The notes: generated by a model not told the origin, from the letters alone. Shown: positions 34,440 through 44,639, counted from the first letter of the stretch. The stretch is DNA of 64,000 nt from Desulfatiglandales bacterium (GCA_963662465.1 OY759599.1:3936001-4000000); one strand, 5' to 3'. Translations and numbers: made by a program.

Positions 34440-36925
34440 TTATTTCTCATCCAAAACCTCTCGAATCGATGAAGCCAGGTTCCGTAAGTCTATGGGCTTC
34501 TCAATGTATTTGCTTACACCGAGGACTTCCGCCTTTTCTGCCGACATCCTCTCGCTGAAGCCGGTACAGATGATCACCGGTGTTTTCGGTCGAATTTTTA
34601 GAACTTCTGCTGCCAGCCTGTCTCCGGTCATTCGAGGCATGGTCATATCAGTGATGATGACATCAAATTGATCTGGATCGATTTTGAACCATTCCAGGGC
34701 CTCCACAGGTTTTGTGGTGCTTTTGATCTGATAGCCCAACCGCTCCAACCGCTGGCGGTTCAGGTTCACCAGGGACTCTTCGTCATCCACAAAGAGGATT
34801 CTTTCAGAACCCCCTCTGATTTCTCCCTCGGGCTCTTTTTCTTGCTCAGCAGTCTCTTCCAATGCGGGGAAATAGATCTCAAAGACCGTTCCCTTTCCAG
34901 GCTCACTCTCAACCCTGATGCCACCACCATTTCTCTTCACAATACCGTGAACCACCGAAAGGCCCATTCCCGTACCCTTGCCAACCTCCTTGGTAGTGAA
35001 ATAAGGGTCAAAGACTCGGTCTATGATTTTGCTCTGGATACCTTCCCCCGTGTCGCTTATTTTCAACCTGACGTAGGCGCCTGGGGATAAAGCCCAATTA
35101 AAACATGCTATTTCTTTCTGAAGGATAATCTTTTCAAGGATCACTTCCAGGAGTCCCCCTTCTTCGGACATGGCATCGGCCGCATTGGTTACCAGATTCA
35201 TTACTATCTGATTGATTTGGGTGGCATCACCCAGAACGTTACATGGATCATCAGAAATGTGCTCTTTGAACGCCACGCTGGTGGGAACGACAGATCTGAG
35301 CATTTTCATGGATTCCTTCAGGATGGGAGCCATATCTAAAGGCTTGCTCTTTTCGTCGCTCTTGCGGCTGAAAGCTAACAATTGCCGGACCATATCTTTT
35401 GCCCTGATAGAAGCCTTACGGATTTCCTTTAAAGACCCGCTTACGGGGTTCGTGTCAGGAACGTCATCAGCAGCCAGTTCCGCATTTCCGAGGATAATGG
35501 CCAGAATATTGTTGAAGTCATGGGCAATACCCCCTGCCAAGGTCCCGACGGCTTCCATTTTCCGGGATTGCAGGAGTTGCGCCTCAAGTTGCCTTTTTTC
35601 AGTTATATCAATCCAGTTGCATACCACATTCGTTAACGCACCTTCCGGATCGTGAATCGGGAACATGTTCACTTGGATACTGACGGACTTGGAACCTTTC
35701 AAATCCATCGTCGGAATATCCTCTCCATTCCAATCGGCAGTAAAATTGATGGTTTTACCTTCCTCATATACAGTACGAATAAGCGTCATCAAACCCTGTT
35801 TTTCGGCAAGCGGATCTTTAAGCATGTTGTATTTACCAACCAATTGATCATCCGTTAAATTCAGGAGTCTCTTCAAAGCAGGGTTTACGTGCTGTAAGGT
35901 TCCTTCTGGATCCGATATCCAAATTGCAAAGGGGCTTTGATCAATAATACGATAAAAGAATTTTTCCCTCGCTTGTAGCGCTTCCTCCGCTTGTTTGCGA
36001 TCGGTGATGTCCTGAGTAAAGCCAGTTCCGCGAATACATTTCCCAAGTTTATCAAAATGCAGTTCGGCTTTTTCCCTGACCCATTTAATGTCGCCATCAA
36101 CCAGCAAGCGATGTTCTATATCATAGGGCTTTTTGTCAAATGCAGCTTTCCATTCTTTATCGACGTATTCTCTGTCATCAGGATGAACGCAATTCAGGAA
36201 AGTTTCATAAGTGAGCTCCGTTCCGGTGGGAAGCCCAAATATCCTGTAATTCTCATCCGTCCACAGTAGTTCATTTTTCTCAATATCTAATTCCCATGTG
36301 CCGATGTGCCCGATCTCTTGCGCTTTCTGAAGGAAGTCTTTCTGCGTCAGCAAGGCTTTTTCAATCTCTATTCGGTCGGTTACATCATGGATGATAGAAT
36401 AAAGTATGGTTTTCTCTCCCAAATTTACAGGACCGGAATAAACTTCAACATTCCGTATCTCTCCTGACGCCAATCGATGAGGAAAGTTAAAATATAATCG
36501 CTTTTCACTCTTAGCATTTTGCATCTCTGAATGGATTTCCTCTAGCGGCAAAGCATTGATATCCGAAATTTTCAAGGTCTCCAGTTCTCTCTTGGAATAC
36601 CCATAATAATTGCACGCAGCCCCATTGGCCTCTAAAATGGCGCCACTTTCGGGATCGATCATCAGTTTTACTGCCATATTCGTCTCAAATACTTGCCGAT
36701 ATTTTATTTCGCTCTCCTTCAAATCTTCTTTTATTCTCCGCCTTTTCTTAATTTCATTTTCAAGCAGTTCTAAAGAGGTGGTCGTCTGTTGAAGCTTACT
36801 TGCCATATTATTGAATGACTTGGCCAAATTGCCAAATTCATCCTTTCTGCTCATAACGATTCTGTATCTAAAATCTCCTTTTCCAACCTTTTCCGTAGCC
36901 TTGTTGAGTATTGCAATGGGTTCAG
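34440..36925 (-). pseudogene. HAMP-PAS3 hybrid histidine kinase whose 5' end is missing at the IS21-like element boundary
   Basis: Starts inside HAMP (PIAILNKATEKVGKGDF...DEFGNLAKSFNNM); the ORF extends only into the element's inverted repeat (ORF-track start 36986 lies inside the element). Confidence 0.8.
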
Positions 36926-37175
36926 CTTCAACGCTAATCAAAACTGAACCAAGTTTGCTAATGGAAATTGAACCATTGGCTGTCACCGCCGGTGAGTACG
37001 GCCCTCAGGTATAGCGGACGATGAGGGATCCATAAGTGGCGGCAAAGGAGTCGTTGATGTAGATTTACTTTTCAATAAATTTTTATAAAATCTATTTTCT
37101 TTGGATTTGGTTTTCTTCTTCCAAGACAGAGGCTTGGTTAAGTGGAAATGCGATTTACTTTGTAGAATGGATGGT

Positions 37176-37211
37176 GAAGGCCCGAAGTAGCCGCTTCGGG
37201 CCTTCTTTTTT
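37176..37211 (+). terminator. Perfect 12-bp hairpin plus U-tract in the leader of the element's gene run
   Basis: GAAGGCCCGAAG-TAGCCG-CTTCGGGCCTTC-TTTTT. Confidence 0.6.
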
Positions 37212-37287
37212 GACCACCGGATAGAGCCGGAAGCCACACACACGCCAATTTTATATAAGTGTGTTTCCGGCCAATTGCAAGGCCGGA

Positions 37288-37704
37288 ATGATGGGAGATG
37301 TCCTTTTAAGAGTGGTTCAATGCCGATGTTGTGGTTGCTTTTTTCACGTCTGTCGGTCGTGTTGGCGTGGCCAGGCCTATTGTGGGGAACGATGTCGCAG
37401 GATACGCCAAAGACAGCTGCACCGGAAAGCTCAGGGGAAATACCGCAATTCGAAAAAAGGGAAAGAGCGCCGTCGTTTGTACGAAAAAACAAAAAAATCC
37501 AAAAAAAATGGACTGAACCCTGGTGATGATAGTTCAACACCTCAAAAAGACTGTGATATTGAACCCAAAAAGCGGTCGGGGAACCGACCCAGCTGTCTTT
37601 TTTGCGGGTCGATCGGGGTTGTTGTGGACCATTTTCCTCGCCGTGCTTATGCAGGGAGGGTTTTTTCAGATGTAACAGGCTTTGAGAAAACCCCATATCC
37701 ATGA
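37288..37704 (+). CDS. Basic Cys-rich (Zn-finger-like) protein
   Basis: CRCCGCFFHVCRSCWRGQAYCGERC, Arg/Lys-rich helix, C-terminal CLFCG. Confidence 0.7.
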   Translation: MMGDVLLRVVQCRCCGCFFHVCRSCWRGQAYCGERCRRIRQRQLHRKAQGKYRNSKKGKERRRLYEKTKKSKKNGLNPGDDSSTPQKDCDIEPKKRSGNRPSCLFCGSIGVVVDHFPRRAYAGRVFSDVTGFEKTPYP

Positions 37705-37716
37705 CAGGAGAAAAAA

Positions 37717-38136
37717 ATGATCAAAAAAAGAGTCCTTTTTCCCGAAAGAGTGCGTGTCATCAATGGAAGCTTCGGCTTTCTGGAGCATCGTTTTTTGAGA
37801 AACGGCTTTTGGGAGAGCCTGAATCATCATGAGCTGCTGCTCTACATTTTTCTGGTGTTGGTATCTGACAAAAACGGGCTCTCTTATTATGGTTACGACA
37901 GAATCTGCCGGATTTTAAAGGTGCATTTGGATCAATATATCGATGCCCGCGATGGCTTGTTGGACAAGGATCTGATTGGGTTTGATGGCCGTCTGTTTCA
38001 GGTTCTTTCGCTTCCCAGACGTCCTGTGATTGTGAAACAGGTAAAGGAGATCCGGCAAGGAAATTGGGTCAGTCTTGGAGAAACCATAGAGGAAATCTTT
38101 CGGGAGACTGGGTATGGAATCCATCCGAACCGTTGA
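37717..38136 (+). CDS. Winged helix-turn-helix-like protein
   Basis: LNHHELLLYIFLVLVSDKNGLSYYGYDRICRIL...ARDGLLDKDLI pattern of replication-initiator-type wHTH; RBS AGGAG. Confidence 0.7.
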   Translation: MIKKRVLFPERVRVINGSFGFLEHRFLRNGFWESLNHHELLLYIFLVLVSDKNGLSYYGYDRICRILKVHLDQYIDARDGLLDKDLIGFDGRLFQVLSLPRRPVIVKQVKEIRQGNWVSLGETIEEIFRETGYGIHPNR

Positions 38137-38998
38137 TATTCATTTGCTGGAGTTGCGTTACGCTCATTGCCGGATAATGAATCACCAGGCTTTAAAGCGA
38201 TTGAGGGATTCCATCGAAACTTACGGGCAGATCGTTCCGGCCCTGGCTATTGAAGAAAAAGACAAACTGATTCTGATTGATGGCTACCTGCGTGTTCGAG
38301 CGCTTTGTGCTTGTGGAAAGGACCGGATATGTGTCCAATTCTCAAAAGAAAACGAACAAAATGCCATGTTTTCGCTTTTAACCAAGGCCAATGAACGGCA
38401 ATGGGAAGTCATTGAGCAGTCTGTTTTACTTCAGGAATTACATCGGCGTTTTGGGTGCAGCCTCTCCCATATTGCAACCCGAATAGGGCGCGACAAGAGT
38501 TTTGTAAAACGGCGGCTGGACCTGGTTGAAGCCCTGCCGGAAAATATTTTGAGAACCGTGATTGCAGGCTCACTTTCAACCTGGGCTGCCAGCCGTGTCA
38601 TGGCGCCGTTGGCGCGCGCCAACGGTGAAGACGCACAAAAACTGTTGGCCCACCTGGAAAAAGAACCTCTATCCACAAGGGAACTGGCCCGTTTCTACGC
38701 ACATTACCAGAAAAGCAACCGGTCTGTTCGAGACCACATGCTGGAAAATCCATCCCTTTTCATAAAAGTTCTCGAACAAAGAACCCAGTCTAAACAAGCC
38801 AAAGAAGTTCATGATGGACCGGAAGGCAAATGGTTCAAGGATATTGAAATGGTATATGCGGTTCTCAAACGTCTGGTGAAAACCGTTTCGCATGTCCATT
38901 ACCCAAAAAGCGATCAGTTGAAGAAACAAACGCTCAAAACCTGGGTGAAAAAGATAGAAAAACAAGCACTGGAACTCAAGAAAGCGACCCAATTATGA
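38114..38998 (+). CDS. ParB/Srx N-terminal domain + HTH protein
   Basis: LRDSIETYGQIVP, LIDGYLRVRAL (arginine-patch variant), SLSHIATRIGRDKSFVKRRLDL HTH. Confidence 0.85.
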   Translation: MESIRTVDIHLLELRYAHCRIMNHQALKRLRDSIETYGQIVPALAIEEKDKLILIDGYLRVRALCACGKDRICVQFSKENEQNAMFSLLTKANERQWEVIEQSVLLQELHRRFGCSLSHIATRIGRDKSFVKRRLDLVEALPENILRTVIAGSLSTWAASRVMAPLARANGEDAQKLLAHLEKEPLSTRELARFYAHYQKSNRSVRDHMLENPSLFIKVLEQRTQSKQAKEVHDGPEGKWFKDIEMVYAVLKRLVKTVSHVHYPKSDQLKKQTLKTWVKKIEKQALELKKATQL

Positions 38999-40377
38999 TC
39001 CGACAATCCAAAAAAGATGCCATTGTGGAATTGAAAAAAACCGGCATGAGTTTGCGCGACATCGCCAAAACCCTGAAGGCCGGTCGCAATACCGTCACGA
39101 AGGTTTTAGATGATCATGACGAAGAGGCGGTACCCCAAAGGAACTCCCGGTATGAAGAACATGTCCCGTTGATCCGCGAGCTTTTCAAGGAATGTAAAGG
39201 AAATGCCGTGCGAGTAGCCGAGGAACTGGAAAGCCGCCAACAGATCAAAATCCCTTATCAGAGTCTGACCTGGATTATGAGAAAGTACGAGATCCGGGAA
39301 CGTAAAAAAAGACGGGCGGGCCAATACCATTTTAAACCCGGTCAGGAGATGCAGCATGATACGTCACCCCATCTGGTTGTCATTAATGGGAAAAAAATGT
39401 CGACCCAGTGCGCGTCCCTGACCCTGGCCTTTTGCCGAAGGATTTTTATTCAGTATTACCCCTGTTTTACCCGGTTTGAGTGCAAGGTTTTCCTAAAAAA
39501 AGCATTCGAGTTTATGGACGGGGTGTGTTCCCGGTGCATGGTTGACAACACCAATGTTATTGTGGCCGGCGGCACCGGGCCTGATGCATTGATTGCGCCT
39601 GAAATGAAATACTTCGGCGATATGTATGGAACCCGGTTTGAGGCCCATGCTGTAGGAGACGCCAATCGAAGTGCCCGTGTGGAAAGGCCTTTTCATTTTG
39701 TGGAAAACAATTTTCTTCCCGGTAGAACATTTGTTAGCTGGCAGGATTTGAACCGGCAGGCAATCGACTGGTGCCGGAATACAAGCGATAAAAAGTTTAA
39801 ACGGGCTTTAGGGATGACGCCGGATGAGGCCTATGTCATTGAAAAGCCATATCTCATTGATTTACCGGCATACCAGCCGCCAGTCTATGTGGCAGAACAC
39901 AGGGTAGCCGATGTTCAGGGATATGTGCACTTGGACACCAACCGCTATTCAGTCCCTGAAGCGCTGATTGGGAACTCCCTGGAAGTACAGAAACATTGGC
40001 TCAAGGTCATCGTTTACGACAAAAACACAAAAGTGGCGGAACATGACCGCATACTGGATAAACGCAACACCCGAACAACCCTGCCCGGTCACCATGTTCC
40101 CATTCGAAGAAAAAAAGATCCCCGAATCCCTTCAAAAGAAGAACAGCTGTTGACGGGAGAGGATGCCATCCTGGATGAGTATGTGGCTGAACTGAAGAAA
40201 AGAAGTCACGGTCGCGGTGTGGTCAAGTTACGTCGGTTGCTTCATCTGAAACGCACTTATCCCGGGGAACCTTTTTTGAAAGCCATAACACAGGCGCTTA
40301 AATATGGACTTTTTGATTTGTCGCGTCTGGAAAACATTATTCTCGATTATATCGCGGGAGACTTTTTTGATCTATGA
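38995..40377 (+). CDS. istA: IS21-family DDE transposase
   Basis: N-terminal HTH, PGQEMQHD, MVDNTN, SARVERPF, DTNRYSVP. Confidence 0.92.
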   Translation: MIRQSKKDAIVELKKTGMSLRDIAKTLKAGRNTVTKVLDDHDEEAVPQRNSRYEEHVPLIRELFKECKGNAVRVAEELESRQQIKIPYQSLTWIMRKYEIRERKKRRAGQYHFKPGQEMQHDTSPHLVVINGKKMSTQCASLTLAFCRRIFIQYYPCFTRFECKVFLKKAFEFMDGVCSRCMVDNTNVIVAGGTGPDALIAPEMKYFGDMYGTRFEAHAVGDANRSARVERPFHFVENNFLPGRTFVSWQDLNRQAIDWCRNTSDKKFKRALGMTPDEAYVIEKPYLIDLPAYQPPVYVAEHRVADVQGYVHLDTNRYSVPEALIGNSLEVQKHWLKVIVYDKNTKVAEHDRILDKRNTRTTLPGHHVPIRRKKDPRIPSKEEQLLTGEDAILDEYVAELKKRSHGRGVVKLRRLLHLKRTYPGEPFLKAITQALKYGLFDLSRLENIILDYIAGDFFDL

Positions 40378-41093
40378 AAAAGAAAATTGAACAGTTACTC
40401 ATTGATTTGAAGTTTAAAGGCATGCTGAAGGCTCTCGAAGAACAGTTGGCTTCGGCTGAAAAGAACGGTTTTTCCATTCACGAGGTCATCTACAATCTCC
40501 TGGCTGAGGAATTACGTTTCCGGCAGGAGCGCAGCATGATCTATCGGGTCCAGATTGCAAAGCTTCCATGGGAATGGACCCTCAACTCCTTTCCGTTTGA
40601 TCTTCAGCCGGGAATACAGAAGAGCCGGATCATGACGTTGTCCGGCCTTGACTTTATCAGCCGAAGAGAAAACATCGTGTTCCATGGAAAAACCGGCGTC
40701 GGCAAAACGGGATTGGCCGTGGGGATCCTTCGTCAAGCCATTATTGCCGGGTACCGGGGGCGTTTTTATAATGTTCAGGATTTGCTGGATCAGCTCTATG
40801 CGTCTTTGGCAGATCGGTCCACCCCGAAACTCCTCAATGCCCTTTGCAGATATGACCTGCTTCTGCTCGATGAACTGGGATACCTGACCCTCAAAAAAGA
40901 GCAGATGAACGCCTTTTTTAAACTCATGAAAGATCGCTATGAAGCCGGTCGGTCCACAATTATTACGACCAATCTTCAACCTGAACAATGGTATTCGCTG
41001 CTTGAACCAAAGGACATGGTCGATGCCTTGCTGGATCGTCTCAACCATCGCTGCATCAACATTCATATTGATGGTCCTTCCCTCAGAAAATGA
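40374..41093 (+). CDS. istB: IS21-family AAA+ ATPase helper
   Basis: GKTGVGKT, LLLLDELGY, STIITTN, DALLDRLNH, DGPSLR. Confidence 0.95.
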   Translation: MKKKIEQLLIDLKFKGMLKALEEQLASAEKNGFSIHEVIYNLLAEELRFRQERSMIYRVQIAKLPWEWTLNSFPFDLQPGIQKSRIMTLSGLDFISRRENIVFHGKTGVGKTGLAVGILRQAIIAGYRGRFYNVQDLLDQLYASLADRSTPKLLNALCRYDLLLLDELGYLTLKKEQMNAFFKLMKDRYEAGRSTIITTNLQPEQWYSLLEPKDMVDALLDRLNHRCINIHIDGPSLRK

Positions 41094-41191
41094 GATGTTC
41101 GCCAAAGGGCCGGTTTTGAGGTCTGAATATCACCGGTCTGTTTGAATCTCGTTACACGAATATCAGAAATTACCTTGTCTTGGAGCTTGAA

Positions 41192-41389
41192 ATGAGAGGT
41201 GGAAAACGGGTAGGCGCCGGCCGAAGAAAGAAACCGGAACATTTGAGACGTGAACTGCTCACCATTCGTCTCCCCAAATGGATGATTCTACAGCTGAAAA
41301 AAAACGGGGAAATTGGATATTTGATTGAGGATCAATTGGCGAAGGGAGGCCTCCTGAATTTACCGGACGACTATGACATAGACAAATAG
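41192..41389 (+). CDS. Small basic DNA-binding-like protein (RGGKRxGAGR + RHH-like)
   Basis: MRGGKRVGAGRRKKP...LTIRLPKW; GGAG upstream; lies inside the element's right end. Confidence 0.55.
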   Translation: MRGGKRVGAGRRKKPEHLRRELLTIRLPKWMILQLKKNGEIGYLIEDQLAKGGLLNLPDDYDIDK

Positions 41390-41756
41390 TTCCTCAATAA
41401 GCATTGCCCTTAACCGAAAAATCTAATCCCCTCTTCTCTGCCATCACCATATTGATGGTATCCTCATCACTGATTCTTCAACCAGAACGCTACGTGTCTC
41501 ACCAGCATTTTTAAAATACCATCTGATATACTCTTTCATGCAACCTCTAACAAATTTACAAGAAAACCCTTCTAAAAGGAAAAGACCAGTGCGCAATATC
41601 TGGTTCCGTTTGGAGTAGCAAAACTGGTTCCATTTTGGTTAGCGCCCAAGGAGTACTTCCATAAATCCTCACCCCAAACCGGCCAAGATCGTGCAAGACT
41701 GCCAGATGAATCTTACATTATTTGCCTTTAATTTGTTGCCAAAAATACCTGCCTGA

Positions 41757-44639
41757 TTACCCCAGGACCTTCTTCAAAACATGTTCAAGATCAGATATTT
41801 GATACGGCTTGGCCATGGCCCCCCGAAAGCCGTATTCCTCAAAATGGGCCAATACCGGGTCATTGAAATAGCCGCTGCAGACGATGGCCTTTACATCCGG
41901 ATCGATTTTGAGGAGTTCCTTGATGGCCTGTTCGCCACCCATTCCCTCTTTAATGGTCAGATCCAGAATAACCCCGTCAAAATGTTCTCCTGAATCCAGA
42001 TGGTTGTTGTAAATTTTAATGGCTTCCACACCATCCTTTACGGTTTCTACTTCATACCCCAATCGTTCCAGCATCCTCCGGGCCAGATTTCTCAGCATTT
42101 CCTCATCGTCCATGACCAGAATTTTTTGGATTGTTGATTGTTGATTGGCGATTGTTGATTGGGCTTGCGCATCATCACGCTGAGCGGCTGCTCCGTGCAA
42201 TGTGGCGCCTGTTTCACCAGGGCTCTCTGAGCATTCGGAAGCAGGGAGGTACATGAGTACGGTGGTTCCCTCGCCAGGAGCCGAAGTCACGGCAATATGT
42301 CCGCCATGATTTCGAAGGATGGCGTAGGCAGTGGTCAGCCCCAGGCCCATTCCCTTTTGGACGCCTCTTTCCTTTGTGGAAAAATAGGGATCAAAGATTT
42401 GACTCAGGTGTTCTTTTGAAATACCTCGCCCCTCATCTTTGATGGAAACCCTCACATACTTCCCTTTCTTGAGAGGCAATTCGGAGCCCAAGCCTTTATC
42501 CTCAATGACTTTATTTTCCGCCTTGATGATGATGCTCCCGCCCTGGGCCATGGCCTCAGCGGCGTTCATAAGCACATTGCTGATGGCGTACTGCATCTGC
42601 CTTAGATCATATTCCACGAGCCAGAGATTATCCTGGATGGTAAAGATCGTCAATACTCCATTGGCCCGGGTCTGTTGCGGGATATCTTTCAGGAGGCTCT
42701 CCATAGACCCCGGTTTTTTTACGGGATGCCCTCCCCGGGAGAGGGTCATAAGTTCATGGGTCAGATCCCGTGCTTTCAAGGATGCCTGTTCAGCCTCATC
42801 AAGGAATCCTGACAGGTGCGAATGGGGTGCGGTTTCCTCCCGGGCCATGGAGAGGTTCCCCATGATCATGGCCAAGAGATTGTTGTAATCATGGGCAATG
42901 CCGCCTGTTAGCGTGCTGATGGCTTCCATTTTCCGAGCTTGGAGAAGCTCCTCTCTGAGTTGCCTTTCTTTGGTTATATCGATGAACAATCCTTTCAGAC
43001 CCCTGAAGCGATCCCCGACGTAAATCGGTCGCGAGGAGGACCTGACCCAGTGGTATTCCCCCGTTTTGGCCCGCAGCCGATATTCAGAGGGCCTGAGGAT
43101 TCCCTTCTCAATGTCCTGAAATCTGCCCTGTATGACGGGAAGATCATCGGGGTGCAAAAATTCAGTAAAAGACTTTCCCATGAACTCCGAAAGATCATAT
43201 CCCATAACGGGTGTTGCCCGGGGGCTGATGTAGGTAATAAGACCATCCTCATCGATGGAATAGATCACATCATTGATGTTTTCCACCAGATCGCGATAGC
43301 TTTCGGCGGTCTCCCTGACCCTGGCAAGCAGGATGTCATGTTCCGCCTCCAGGGCCTTTTGCCGGGTCACATCCCGCCCGCAACCCACAGTGCCGATAAT
43401 GCCACCGTTTTCATCCAGAAAAGGCGCCTTGAGAACTTCCAGATGAACAAATCGACCCTTTACGTATCCGGCTTCGTCAAATTTCCCCGGCTGTTTGCTT
43501 TCCAGGACGATTTTCTCCGAATCAGCATGACCGTCCCCCAGGGTATGCCGCTGGGGATCACCGGGCCGCCTTTGCTTCTCCCGATCGATGAAATAGGCCT
43601 CTGTCTTACCGATGGGCTCATCCGTATCTTTTGCCATCAACCGGTTTCGACACGTGGCTTCATTTGCAAAAAGAAACCTTCCTTCCAGATCTTTGGCCCA
43701 GATCATGTCGGGCGCATTGTCGAACATCAACCGCATGGCGCCGTAGAGGGATTTATGTTTCAGTTCACTTTCCGCCAGGGTTTGCGCAGTCTGTTTCTGG
43801 TCTGTAATATCAAGAATTTGAACCAGATAACCCCTAATGGATTCTTCTTCGGTAATTCCCAATGGCGTAATTTGCACATCGAGATAGGCAATGCCTGATT
43901 TTGTCGTTTTATACAGATTCAGTTTTTTAACTTTTTCAAAATCAAATGCCGCTTCATATCTTATGCTTTCATGTTTCCGGAGCCGCGTTTTATTATCATC
44001 AGAGATATTGGGATCATCAAATAATTTGAAACCCATTATTTCCGAAACCGCTGAAAGACCGAAGATATCCAGACAGGCTTTATTGACATGCTGGAGTTCT
44101 CCACCAACGTTGTAAATTTCAATCCCGATGGGTGATTGTTCGTAGATGGTTTTGAAACGCTCCTCGCTCGCCCGCAGCGCCTTTTCGGTTTTCTTTCGTT
44201 CTGCTATCTCCCGCTTTAAATCAAGGTTCGTTTGCTCAAGATGATCATAGGCGGCCTTGAGTTTCAATTCCAGGTTCCTTCTGCACAGCACAATCTCGAT
44301 AACCCCTCTGATTTCATTTTCGTCAAAAGGCTTCATCACATAACCGAAGGGTTCCACCTCCCTGGCTCTTTCGATATATTCCGGATCATCGAATCCGGTA
44401 ATAAACACCACTGCCGCGTCTATTTCCCCCTTGATCTTCCGTGCGGCGGAAATACCGTCGAGTTCTCCCGGCATGACCACATCCATCAGAATCAGGTCGG
44501 GCTTTAAATCACGGGCCATTTCAACCGCAGACAGGCCCGTATCGGCAACCCCCACAACATCATAGTTTATGTGGGTAAGATATTCCTCCAACTCCATCTG
44601 AATGGCGGCATCGTCATCGGCGATCACGATTCTCGGCAT
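41757..44639 (-). CDS. REC-PAS3-HisKA-HATPase-REC hybrid kinase
   Basis: IVIADDD...LMDVVMP, TGGIAHDYNN, FDPYFSTK, ILVMDDE. Confidence 0.92.
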   Translation of the reverse strand: MPRIVIADDDAAIQMELEEYLTHINYDVVGVADTGLSAVEMARDLKPDLILMDVVMPGELDGISAARKIKGEIDAAVVFITGFDDPEYIERAREVEPFGYVMKPFDENEIRGVIEIVLCRRNLELKLKAAYDHLEQTNLDLKREIAERKKTEKALRASEERFKTIYEQSPIGIEIYNVGGELQHVNKACLDIFGLSAVSEIMGFKLFDDPNISDDNKTRLRKHESIRYEAAFDFEKVKKLNLYKTTKSGIAYLDVQITPLGITEEESIRGYLVQILDITDQKQTAQTLAESELKHKSLYGAMRLMFDNAPDMIWAKDLEGRFLFANEATCRNRLMAKDTDEPIGKTEAYFIDREKQRRPGDPQRHTLGDGHADSEKIVLESKQPGKFDEAGYVKGRFVHLEVLKAPFLDENGGIIGTVGCGRDVTRQKALEAEHDILLARVRETAESYRDLVENINDVIYSIDEDGLITYISPRATPVMGYDLSEFMGKSFTEFLHPDDLPVIQGRFQDIEKGILRPSEYRLRAKTGEYHWVRSSSRPIYVGDRFRGLKGLFIDITKERQLREELLQARKMEAISTLTGGIAHDYNNLLAMIMGNLSMAREETAPHSHLSGFLDEAEQASLKARDLTHELMTLSRGGHPVKKPGSMESLLKDIPQQTRANGVLTIFTIQDNLWLVEYDLRQMQYAISNVLMNAAEAMAQGGSIIIKAENKVIEDKGLGSELPLKKGKYVRVSIKDEGRGISKEHLSQIFDPYFSTKERGVQKGMGLGLTTAYAILRNHGGHIAVTSAPGEGTTVLMYLPASECSESPGETGATLHGAAAQRDDAQAQSTIANQQSTIQKILVMDDEEMLRNLARRMLERLGYEVETVKDGVEAIKIYNNHLDSGEHFDGVILDLTIKEGMGGEQAIKELLKIDPDVKAIVCSGYFNDPVLAHFEEYGFRGAMAKPYQISDLEHVLKKVLG

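Follow-up and report, generated by a model that had tools for sequence, protein, structure and literature searches.

The 64,000-nucleotide stretch of DNA analyzed here (hereafter called the window) comes from Desulfatiglandales bacterium (GCA_963662465.1, OY759599.1:3936001-4000000). It carries a transposable element of the IS21 family, in which the transposase gene istA and the helper ATPase gene istB are preceded by the gene of a ParB-family protein. The IS21 machinery of this element is known; the new feature is a parS-type palindrome inside the ParB gene of a ParB-carrying IS21 branch. This palindrome is the strongest feature of the element, and was absent from the first-pass annotation, which had been made from the sequence of the window alone. 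The element is very probably an autonomous and recently active member of a deep, widespread, and unannotated IS21 branch, with a core composed of a Zn-ribbon protein, the ParB-family protein, IstA, IstB, and the palindrome in the ParB gene, and with winged-helix and ribbon-helix-helix (RHH)-like proteins as optional components.

Architecture of the element

In a BLAST search of the 8.16-Mb host genome with positions 36926-41650, we found 21 full-length, four interrupted, and four fragment copies, with 99.5-100% identity. The copies all start and stop at window positions 36926 and 41650, and the ends are therefore exact to the base. Two of the 21 full copies have a 19-bp insertion in the left non-coding part, near the left end. 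Target-site duplications accompany 19 of 25 copies (7 bp in nine, 8 bp in eight, 6 bp in one, and 5 bp in one), and set the termini of the element as CTTCAACG...CGCCCAAG (CTT...AAG). The other six copies, the window copy among them, have no target duplication. The terminal 50 bp match each other in inverted orientation at 37 of 50 positions; these repeats escaped the default repeat search, and were revealed by a finer seed. The end unit, GCTAA-N5-AAA-N-TGA(A/C)CCA, occurs twice per end and is common to the multi-copy relatives, and the same end design is present in five other family members and in the deeper relative called type C (see below). Inside the element, no extra copies of the end sub-repeat exist at four or fewer mismatches of 19.

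Six same-strand open reading frames (ORFs) span positions 37261-41389, and are flanked by two opposite-strand histidine-kinase genes. A gap of 12 nt separates orf1 from orf2, orf2 and parB overlap by 23 nt, and ATGA overlaps join parB to istA and istA to istB (Table 1). The first-pass annotation had already described a 4.7-kb unit with these boundaries, 50-bp inverted repeats with two sub-repeats per end at a 24-bp spacing, and the same gene spacing. The genome copies and the located sub-repeats agree with it on all of these points. It had counted five same-strand genes, to which orf6 must be added as a sixth. It had also noted the absence of a parA partner; consistently, searches of Pfam and NCBIfam with the six ORFs gave no match to any ParA family.

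IstA matches the NCBIfam family NF033546 over profile positions 3-294 of 294 (E 1.9e-37), with a score of 129 bits, below the curated cut-off of 160. Asp122, Asp184, and Glu230 are invariant in 32 IstA sequences, and the C-terminal part contains the Mu-type barrel (Pfam Mu-transpos_C_2). IstB matches Pfam IstB_IS21 with 200.6 bits and NCBIfam NF038214 (IS21_help_AAA) with 225 bits, above the cut-off of 200, and its translation contains the Walker A motif GKTGVGKT and the Walker B motif LLLDE. It also matches the DnaC/DnaA ATPase families.

Table 1. Features of the element in the window
Feature	Position	Strand	Remarks
Whole IS21-family element, 4,725 bp	36926..41650	+	ends common to near-identical genome copies
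Left terminal inverted repeat	36926..36975	+	19-nt sub-repeats 36933-36951 and 36957-36975, 24 bp apart; presumed IstA sites
Terminator-like hairpin, left leader	37176..37211 (stem 37176-37205)	+	13 pairs + T run; fold z-score -5.07 for 37160-37310
9-bp inverted repeat over orf1 ribosome-binding site and start codon	37265..37288	+	hairpin
orf1, Cys-rich basic Zn-ribbon-type protein, 138 aa	37288..37704	+	147 aa if GTG 37261 is the start
orf2, winged-helix protein, 139 aa, facultative	37717..38136	+	HTH_36, model, fold
parB, ParB-family protein, 294 aa	38114..38998	+	ParB/Srx N-domain, helix-turn-helix (HTH), helical C-terminal part
parS-like perfect palindrome, 16-20 bp	38606..38625	.	ParB codons 165-171 (P-L-A-R-A-N-G)
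istA, DDE transposase, 460 aa	38995..40377	+	NCBIfam, Pfam Mu-transpos_C_2
istB, AAA+ helper ATPase, 239 aa	40374..41093	+	Pfam, NCBIfam
orf6, small basic protein, 65 aa, possibly RHH, facultative	41192..41389	+	Atlas neighbours
TGCGCA hexamer, just inside inner right sub-repeat	41590..41595	.	positional conservation
Right terminal inverted repeat	41601..41650	-	sub-repeats 41600-41619 and 41624-41643, 24 bp apart

The ParB-family protein

The product of the gene upstream of istA exceeds the cut-off of Pfam HTH_ParB (29 bits vs 22.6), and scores below that of TIGR00180 (44 bits vs 58.45); its match to Noc is also sub-threshold. It matches ParB families in PHROG, and a profile built from 48 sequences matches the structures of Spo0J, ParB, Noc, and KorB (6sdk at E 7e-19). 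The AlphaFold2 (AF2) model of the protein has a predicted local distance difference test (pLDDT) score of 88.8. The top Foldseek match of this model is ParB-CTPgammaS (7bnr, E 1.6e-10), and the CTP- and CDP-bound ParB structures come first in the list, followed by Noc and KorB. In the model, the protein has no N-terminal extension before the first strand. A complex prediction for IstA with the ParB-like protein, which was run without controls, gave a score of 0.18 against a mark of 0.32, and counts neither way.

A parS-like palindrome inside the ParB gene

By scanning for palindromes at fixed distances from istA, we found a palindrome that recurs about 320 bp upstream of this gene. In the window element, it is the perfect palindrome CCGTTGGCGCGCGCCAACGG, 370 bp upstream of istA and within the transcription unit, and the window contains one match, as compared to 0.04 expected. 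The arms are perfect over at least 7 bp in 52 of 74 distinct gene segments. Of 137 ParB ORFs, 82 have all eight pairs of the 16-bp core intact, 44 have seven, eight have six, and three have fewer; the motif was probably mislocated in these last three (L070, L088, and L184), which are retained in the count.

The palindrome is constrained at the DNA level. In 62 ParB genes with less than 90% pairwise identity, codons 166-170 have the five lowest synonymous entropies of the 117 conserved-residue columns, for which the median is 1.68 bits. Codon 166 is TTG in 49 of 49 cases, codon 167 is GCG in 46 of 46, codon 168 is CGC in 61 of 62, codon 169 is GCC in 48 of 55, and codon 170 is AAC in 45 of 52. 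Moreover, compensatory variants keep the dyad, as in GTTCGCGCGCGCGAAC, which also turns Leu into Phe in the protein, and in GTTGGCACGTGCCAAC. The deeper relatives of types B and C, with ParB proteins that are about 20% identical, carry different perfect palindromes at the same codons (GTTTACGCGCGTAAAC, GTTTATACGTATAAAC, and GTTCATACGTATGAAC). The half-site of type A, to which the window element belongs, is GTTGGCGC. The predicted recognition helix covaries with the half-site: GTTG is accompanied by V-[K/S]-R-R, and GTT[C/T] by V-S-[Y/V/M/L]-R.

The 16-mer itself was not found in the literature searched; the consensus parS and the parS of Burkholderia cenocepacia chromosome II, as given in Table 1 of PMC7022226, are of the same kind. 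From these sequences, we infer that the family carries a ParB-parS-type pair without ParA, in which the ParB-family protein would bind the palindrome.

In the host genome, the 16-mer occurs 26 times, of which 25 are in copies of the element and one is in a unique intergenic locus. At this locus, an orphan 18-bp copy of the palindrome lies in AT-rich DNA (L190:2481-2498 = G000:C1:3732980-3732997), and a sequence resembling the left-end tip and the first sub-repeat of the element (CCAACGCTAAG...) is located 13 bp to its right. Among the 21 full copies of the element, the distinct coding changes within parB (38591-38927) comprise four non-synonymous ones (S160G, R161H, V247A, and Q272E) and one synonymous one. 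All of the other genes together have no non-synonymous and three synonymous changes; with so few changes, a statistical comparison is not meaningful. Two of the changes in parB, S160G and R161H, are located immediately before the palindrome.

Linkage and co-divergence of ParB and IstA

Is the ParB gene a regular companion of this transposase? A search anchored on a six-sequence IstA alignment, with one genome per species, yielded 550 confirmed loci, and we analyzed the best 80 of these. Their IstAs are 43-100% identical and come from 48 genomes. The hosts of the IstA-anchored loci include Desulfobacterota, Gamma-, Alpha-, Beta-, and Zetaproteobacteria, Acidobacteriota, and others. A ParB gene lies directly upstream of istA in all 60 of the loci with at least 900 bp of upstream sequence, and in 11 of the 12 with 100-899 bp. 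The other eight loci cannot be judged, since the 5' end of istA is missing from them. The converse search, with a ParB alignment against Joint Genome Institute (JGI) metagenomes, gave 249 confirmed loci. Among the best 80 of these, istA is directly downstream of the ParB gene in 62 of the 65 loci with at least 300 bp of downstream sequence. Of the three others, one is a rearranged locus, and two encode ParB::IstB fusions from which istA has been lost. In four metagenome loci (L159, L160, L162, and L163), a single ORF matches both ParB (residues 7-254) and IstB. Such ParB-IstB ORFs are deletion derivatives, in which istA is lost and parB and the palindrome region are kept. For the ParB-linked IS21 branch, 984 protein clusters were found, and the element sizes of the multi-copy relatives are 3.8-4.7 kb.

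The trees of ParB and IstA were compared for 38 loci, after the removal of eight near-identical rows of 46. They have 17 of 35 splits in common, as compared to a mean of 0.20 and a maximum of 3 in 1000 label shuffles. The patristic distances of the ingroup correlate with a Mantel r of 0.94, a value that was reached in none of 2000 permutations. Five well-supported split pairs conflict, and all of them concern the attachment of the long outgroup branch or of L068. When five ParB-less IstAs are included in the IstA tree, the ParB-bearing IstAs form two well-supported clades, which may or may not be sisters.

All genes of the element are under purifying selection, with ratios of non-synonymous to synonymous substitution rates (dN/dS) below 1: 0.16-0.31 for orf2, 0.19-0.27 for parB, 0.15-0.16 for istA, 0.06-0.12 for istB, about 0.4 for orf1, and 0.08 for orf6. 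The close relatives L111 and L112 reveal that the extremities have a different history from the core. In the comparison with L111, identity is 90-95% from orf2 to istB, 50-67% in the leader and orf1, and 60-80% at the right end; in that with L112, the right end alone is replaced. In these two relatives, dS is 1.4-1.8 in the left leader and orf1 and in the right 500 bp with orf6, as compared to 0.22-0.32 in the core. The family is mosaic, and the higher dS at both extremities points to recombination there. The orf2-to-istB core is inherited as a unit, and relatives have exchanged the DNA on either side of it, namely the left leader with orf1 and the right end with orf6.

The deeper relatives keep the gene order, with IstAs that are 28-33% identical and ParBs that are 20-25% identical. 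They are type B (L025), type C (two copies in the host genome, L026, L027), and a plasmid locus of Desulforapulum autotrophicum HRM2 (see below); type C carries a CHC2 primase-type zinc finger. Another ParB-linked IS21 type, 5,028 bp long (L023:4483-13867, L024:3474-8501), is also present in the host genome and encodes a small ORF, ParB, IstA, IstB, a CHC2 zinc finger, and an orf6 homologue, and in one copy of which an IS21 element with an IstA-primase fusion is inserted near orf6. In a gammaproteobacterial member (L066:2101-8226), an ordinary IS21-type element, with an IstA that is 26% identical, is apparently nested between the Zn-ribbon and ParB genes.

Accessory genes and end regions

The translation of orf1 more likely starts at ATG 37288 than at GTG 37261. 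Its product has no Pfam, NCBIfam, or PHROG match, and its nearest Atlas clusters are unnamed. Two hidden Markov models (HMMs) detect a basic Zn-ribbon gene upstream of ParB in 99 of 109 loci (subtype 1a in 31 and subtype 1b in 70), and these genes may be homologous or merely analogous across loci. The remaining loci comprise six with a third CxxC type, recognized by eye, two with a different Cys-rich ORF, and two with no such gene.

The orf2 product scores 23.3 bits with Pfam HTH_36, below the cut-off of 25, and its AF2 model has a pLDDT of 78. Among the structural neighbours of this model, 4pta, a RepA_N initiator, ranks first (Z 8.1, 86 residues aligned), followed by 5wtn (Z 7.5) and 8ojj (Z 6.4), and the Z-scores of the RepA_N and DnaB/DnaD N-domains tie with those of generic winged helices. 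A search of PDB sequences gave no match for orf2, and Foldseek gave none at E 0.001. This winged-helix gene is present in 27 of 109 loci. Two genes of the same type lie outside the element in the same genome (G000:C1:286192-288273 (-) and 3489873-3493976 (+); HMM scores 180 and 173). Both are preceded by a Cys/His-rich ORF of 203-216 aa and followed by tyrosine-recombinase-like genes (three in one case and at least two in the other), and these loci look like a “recombinase in trio” element with the same accessory gene. A small SEC-C-motif-like protein (N-terminus ...GRN.PCPCGSGKKYKKCC) is encoded beside both of these loci (G000:C1:288319-288720 and 3489459-3489866), and also adjoins a copy of the element in NaphS2 (L021:3191-3583).

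The orf6 product has no Pfam match. Its nearest named Atlas clusters are all of the RHH type, with scores of 0.83-0.88, and provide a lead only. Homologues of orf6 are found downstream of istB in 17 of 69 loci. They are 75-79% identical across three IS21 types of the same genome, and orf6 of the window element is about 77-79% identical to its counterparts in the two other types. The IstAs of these types are only about 30% identical, and orf6 is therefore exchanged between co-resident elements. We suggest that the Zn-ribbon, winged-helix, and RHH proteins act as small, interchangeable regulators that bind DNA and are linked to the end regions next to their genes.

The left leader is 360 bp long. 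Its terminator is kept between the window element and the NaphS2 element, despite the diverged flanks, and the hairpin over the orf1 start may serve for translation control or as an operator. A promoter scan gave sites no more numerous than in shuffled sequences. At the other end, TGCGCA occupies the same place in all five of the type A elements compared (window, NaphS2, L072, L077, and L094) and in L029, and is absent from the left ends and from type C. The two copies of a direct repeat, GATTTACTTT, located 90 bp apart, are not above chance. Rfam gave a single sub-threshold match (Mu-gpT-DE, 20.7 bits vs 49), and the left boundary of the NaphS2 relative was not fixable from a comparison of copies.

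The first-pass annotation had considered the three genes upstream of istA to be core components rather than cargo. This view stands for the ParB and Zn-ribbon genes, and falls for the winged-helix gene, which is facultative and also occurs beside three tyrosine-recombinase genes. Its proposal that ParB should accompany homologues of this IstA, and that the two trees should agree, is borne out by the counts and the split comparison given above, with the converse linkage coming from an independent collection. As candidate roles of these genes, it had put forward targeting, immunity, regulation, and the maintenance of an excised circle. An insertion-site bias, for which it had also allowed, is not seen among the copies. 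It knew of no functional description of the arrangement, and no description of an IS21 element with ParB was found in the literature searched (ISfinder and the main insertion sequence (IS) reviews are outside that search), and the passages of PMC7022226 and PMC12839542 consulted describe none.

Copies and insertion sites

The left end of the window copy truncates the 5' part of a histidine-kinase gene (34440-36986 (-)), the remainder of which is not found across the element (41651-41757). The truncated gene and the lack of a target duplication indicate that the window copy is probably rearranged. The left flank of the copy at 6067428 equals the right flank of the copy at 5347739 by ATAAGGG, and copies of the element have therefore recombined with each other. 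The contig depth over the element is 1116-1143, as compared to 39-65 on the flanks (run X1, of unrecorded kind and taken as DNA), which fits a high copy number. The insertion flanks are slightly AT-richer than the genome (GC 0.44-0.46 vs 0.495).

In two copies (G000:C1:1533098-1539753 and 5974616-5981271), orf1 is interrupted immediately behind its start codon by the same 1,921-bp foreign IS, and the two insertions share a 10-bp duplication. A 7-bp target duplication of its own flanks one of these composites, which thus seems to have moved with a disrupted orf1, presumably helped in trans. RNA-library contigs cover 26-28 of 30 bins, with one contig spanning 36920-38397 and another spanning 38659-39891, and carry-over of DNA is possible. 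No end-to-end joint or circle junction appears in the contigs of the two RNA-library runs and two others (one labelled “DNA?” and one of unrecorded kind), and contigs cannot exclude one.

Proposed role of ParB in transposition

What does a ParB-parS-type pair do in an insertion sequence? Since no ParA is present, the ParB of the element does not partition DNA. We propose that a ParB dimer would bind the internal palindrome, and that the palindrome-bound ParB would act as an accessory of the IstA-IstB machine that is required in cis. In one form of this mechanism, ParB would help the two IstA-bound ends to synapse, like the internal enhancer of phage Mu. In the other form, ParB would mark the DNA of the element, and the IstB-bound target capture would be steered away from it, as in immunity. 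A positive cis-acting role of ParB with IstA and IstB, whether by Mu-enhancer-like synapsis or by immunity-like marking, has in our estimate a little less than an even chance. The explanation as a whole, which combines the identity of the IS21 branch with the cis-accessory mechanism, is evenly balanced between being right and wrong. A more specific model is put forward only tentatively: ParB may load at the mid-element palindrome and work with the IstA-bound ends and a DnaC/MuB-like IstB that stands in for ParA, and may thereby either license synapsis or mark the element itself as a forbidden target.

A positive role is favoured by four observations. No ParB-less relative was found among the IstA-anchored loci; in the derivatives found, it is istA that is missing and parB that is retained; the location of the site within the gene ties the protein and the site together; and the ParB-IstA-IstB block co-diverges while the ends are exchanged.

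Several points weigh against this proposal. ParB-family members without ParA are mostly regulators or silencers, which favours an autorepressor. A strict linkage would also be expected for any gene located between the ends and the transposase gene. One pair is broken in 44 of the 137 sites, and a perfect dyad is therefore not obligatory. The insertion sites of the copies have no visible consensus, and their spacing reveals no testable avoidance or clustering. The palindrome might also act as an RNA hairpin, which is possible but less likely. Any contact of ParB with the palindrome, IstA, or IstB is a prediction. Furthermore, passages of PMC7022226 assign the CTP-binding and hydrolysis site of ParB to the arginine patch GERRFRA (GERRxRA). 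In the element protein, this patch aligns to D-G-Y-L-R-V-R-A, of which only Gly57 and Arg60 are invariant in 48 sequences. The reduction of the patch to G..R makes a canonical sliding-clamp CTP cycle doubtful.

Autorepression, or copy-number control, is the alternative that survives best, and we regard it as possible rather than probable. In such a scheme, ParB would bind the palindrome, either by itself or together with one of the small proteins (Zn-ribbon, winged-helix, or RHH), and lower the expression of istA and istB, so that transposition falls as copies accumulate. It might act as a roadblock inside the operon, or by KorB- or SopB-like silencing of a leader promoter about 1.3 kb away. 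ParB-family proteins do silence flanking genes. SopB silencing is cited in PMC7022226, and both the fold and the profile of the element protein also match KorB, a ParB-family repressor. The position of the palindrome within the transcription unit, upstream of istA, suits such a scheme, the operon is otherwise insulated by the terminator and by the hairpin over the ribosome-binding site, and the absence of ParA fits as well. However, a negative regulator should sometimes be lost in proliferating lineages, and none of the 60 IstA-anchored loci with at least 900 bp of upstream sequence is without ParB. In addition, a 294-aa protein with its site is heavy equipment for repression, and no promoter under ParB control is seen, the promoter scan being at the level of shuffles.

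A second alternative assigns the palindrome to the mRNA, as a hairpin for stability, pausing, or translational coupling, and leaves ParB with an unrelated role. The site does lie within a polycistronic message, and the dyad-keeping compensatory changes are equally expected of an RNA stem. In contrast, the dyad has no spacer for a loop, and the imperfect variants have T-C or T-T mismatches rather than G-U wobbles. The parS-type sequence, the covariation of the recognition-helix residues with the half-site, and the orphan copy in intergenic DNA also speak against an RNA element, and we consider this alternative rather improbable.

An improbable explanation is the replication or maintenance of an excised circle or a strand-transfer intermediate, to which host factors for replication or condensin would be brought by ParB-parS, the RepA_N/DnaD-like winged helix, and the DnaC-like IstB. 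The IS21 lineages with an IstA-primase fusion or a CHC2 zinc-finger gene would then be variations on the same theme, and this too is improbable. The replication-type folds at the top of the orf2 list, the CHC2 finger of type C, the IstA-primase fusion element in the host genome, and the DnaC/DnaA matches of IstB all agree with a link to replication. However, orf2 is facultative and its fold scores do not stand out from those of generic winged helices, and the element has neither a replication origin, nor a Rep catalytic protein, nor ParA, nor a junction in the contigs.

Finally, the idea that these genes are passenger cargo of plasmid origin, useful to the host or directed against rival elements and without any role in transposition, would draw on the ParB/Srx proteins of plasmid conflict and defence systems treated in passages of PMC12839542 and on the portability of orf2 between element types, and it is very improbable and largely refuted for the ParB and Zn-ribbon genes by the two-way ParB-istA linkage across phyla, the congruent trees, the translational coupling to istA, dN/dS values below 1 in multi-copy selfish elements, and the absence of any match to the ParB-like protein among the PLSDB plasmids at E 1e-5.

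Comparison with known systems

Like Mu, Tn7, and the CRISPR-associated transposons, IS21 pairs its transposase with an AAA+ protein for target capture, and it serves as a model for this type of system; ParB proteins are models for CTP-switch DNA clamps. A multi-phylum IS21 branch that obligatorily carries ParB and a parS-type site links these two fields. The element, at 4.7 kb and with only six genes and a single 16-bp site, is compact and open to testing, and with it one can ask what ParB-parS does without ParA or a replicon to segregate. If ParB indeed licensed synapsis or marked the element as self, then this would be a nucleotide-gated or clamp-like self-recognition, which is not known for any insertion sequence. 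Such elements escape the current IS annotation, and fragment assemblies into contigs of 2-6 kb.

The locus on plasmid pHRM2a of Desulforapulum autotrophicum HRM2 and types B and C resemble the element in gene order, in end design, and in a palindrome at the same codons. They differ from it in an added CHC2 zinc-finger gene and in the low IstA and ParB identities given above. The pHRM2a locus is annotated in RefSeq as ParB, an HTH protein, an ATP-binding protein, and a CHC2 zinc finger, and not as an IS.

The KorA-KorB pair of RK2 likewise places the gene of a ParB-family protein beside that of a small HTH protein, KorB acts at operators without a direct need for ParA, and 8qa9 is among the fold matches of the element protein. 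In contrast, the profile match to KorB is weak (E 1.2e-4), the genes of the element belong to a transposon operon, and no KorA homologue was identified in it. ParB/Spo0J, Noc, and KorB share with the element protein the ParB/Srx N-domain followed by an HTH, and a 16-bp palindrome of the form GTTnnnnCGnnnnAAC. The element protein differs from them in the absence of ParA, in the reduced arginine patch, and in the translational coupling of its gene to a transposase gene.

Phage Mu combines MuA, MuB, an internal enhancer, and immunity, and both its transposase and its repressor bind the enhancer. The element is similar in its DDE transposase with a Mu-type C-terminal barrel, its AAA+ target-DNA partner, and its putative internal cis site. 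It would differ from Mu in that a separate ParB-family protein would bind the internal site.

Canonical IS21 elements are about 2-2.8 kb long and contain istA and istB only; they generate target duplications of 4-8 bp, and their termini are 5'-TG...CA-3'. The element shares with IS21, IS5376, and IS100/ISEc12 the DDE-type IstA with an overlapping istB, the sub-repeated ends, and duplications of 5-8 bp. It differs from them in its length of 4.7 kb, its six genes, its ParB-parS-type pair, its Zn-ribbon gene, and its CTT...AAG termini. The best-listed plasmid-borne IstAs have no more than 28% identity to its IstA, which scores below the NCBI family cut-off. The IS21 machinery nevertheless makes the element a member of IS21, which departs from the usual description of this family in size, gene content, and terminal dinucleotides.

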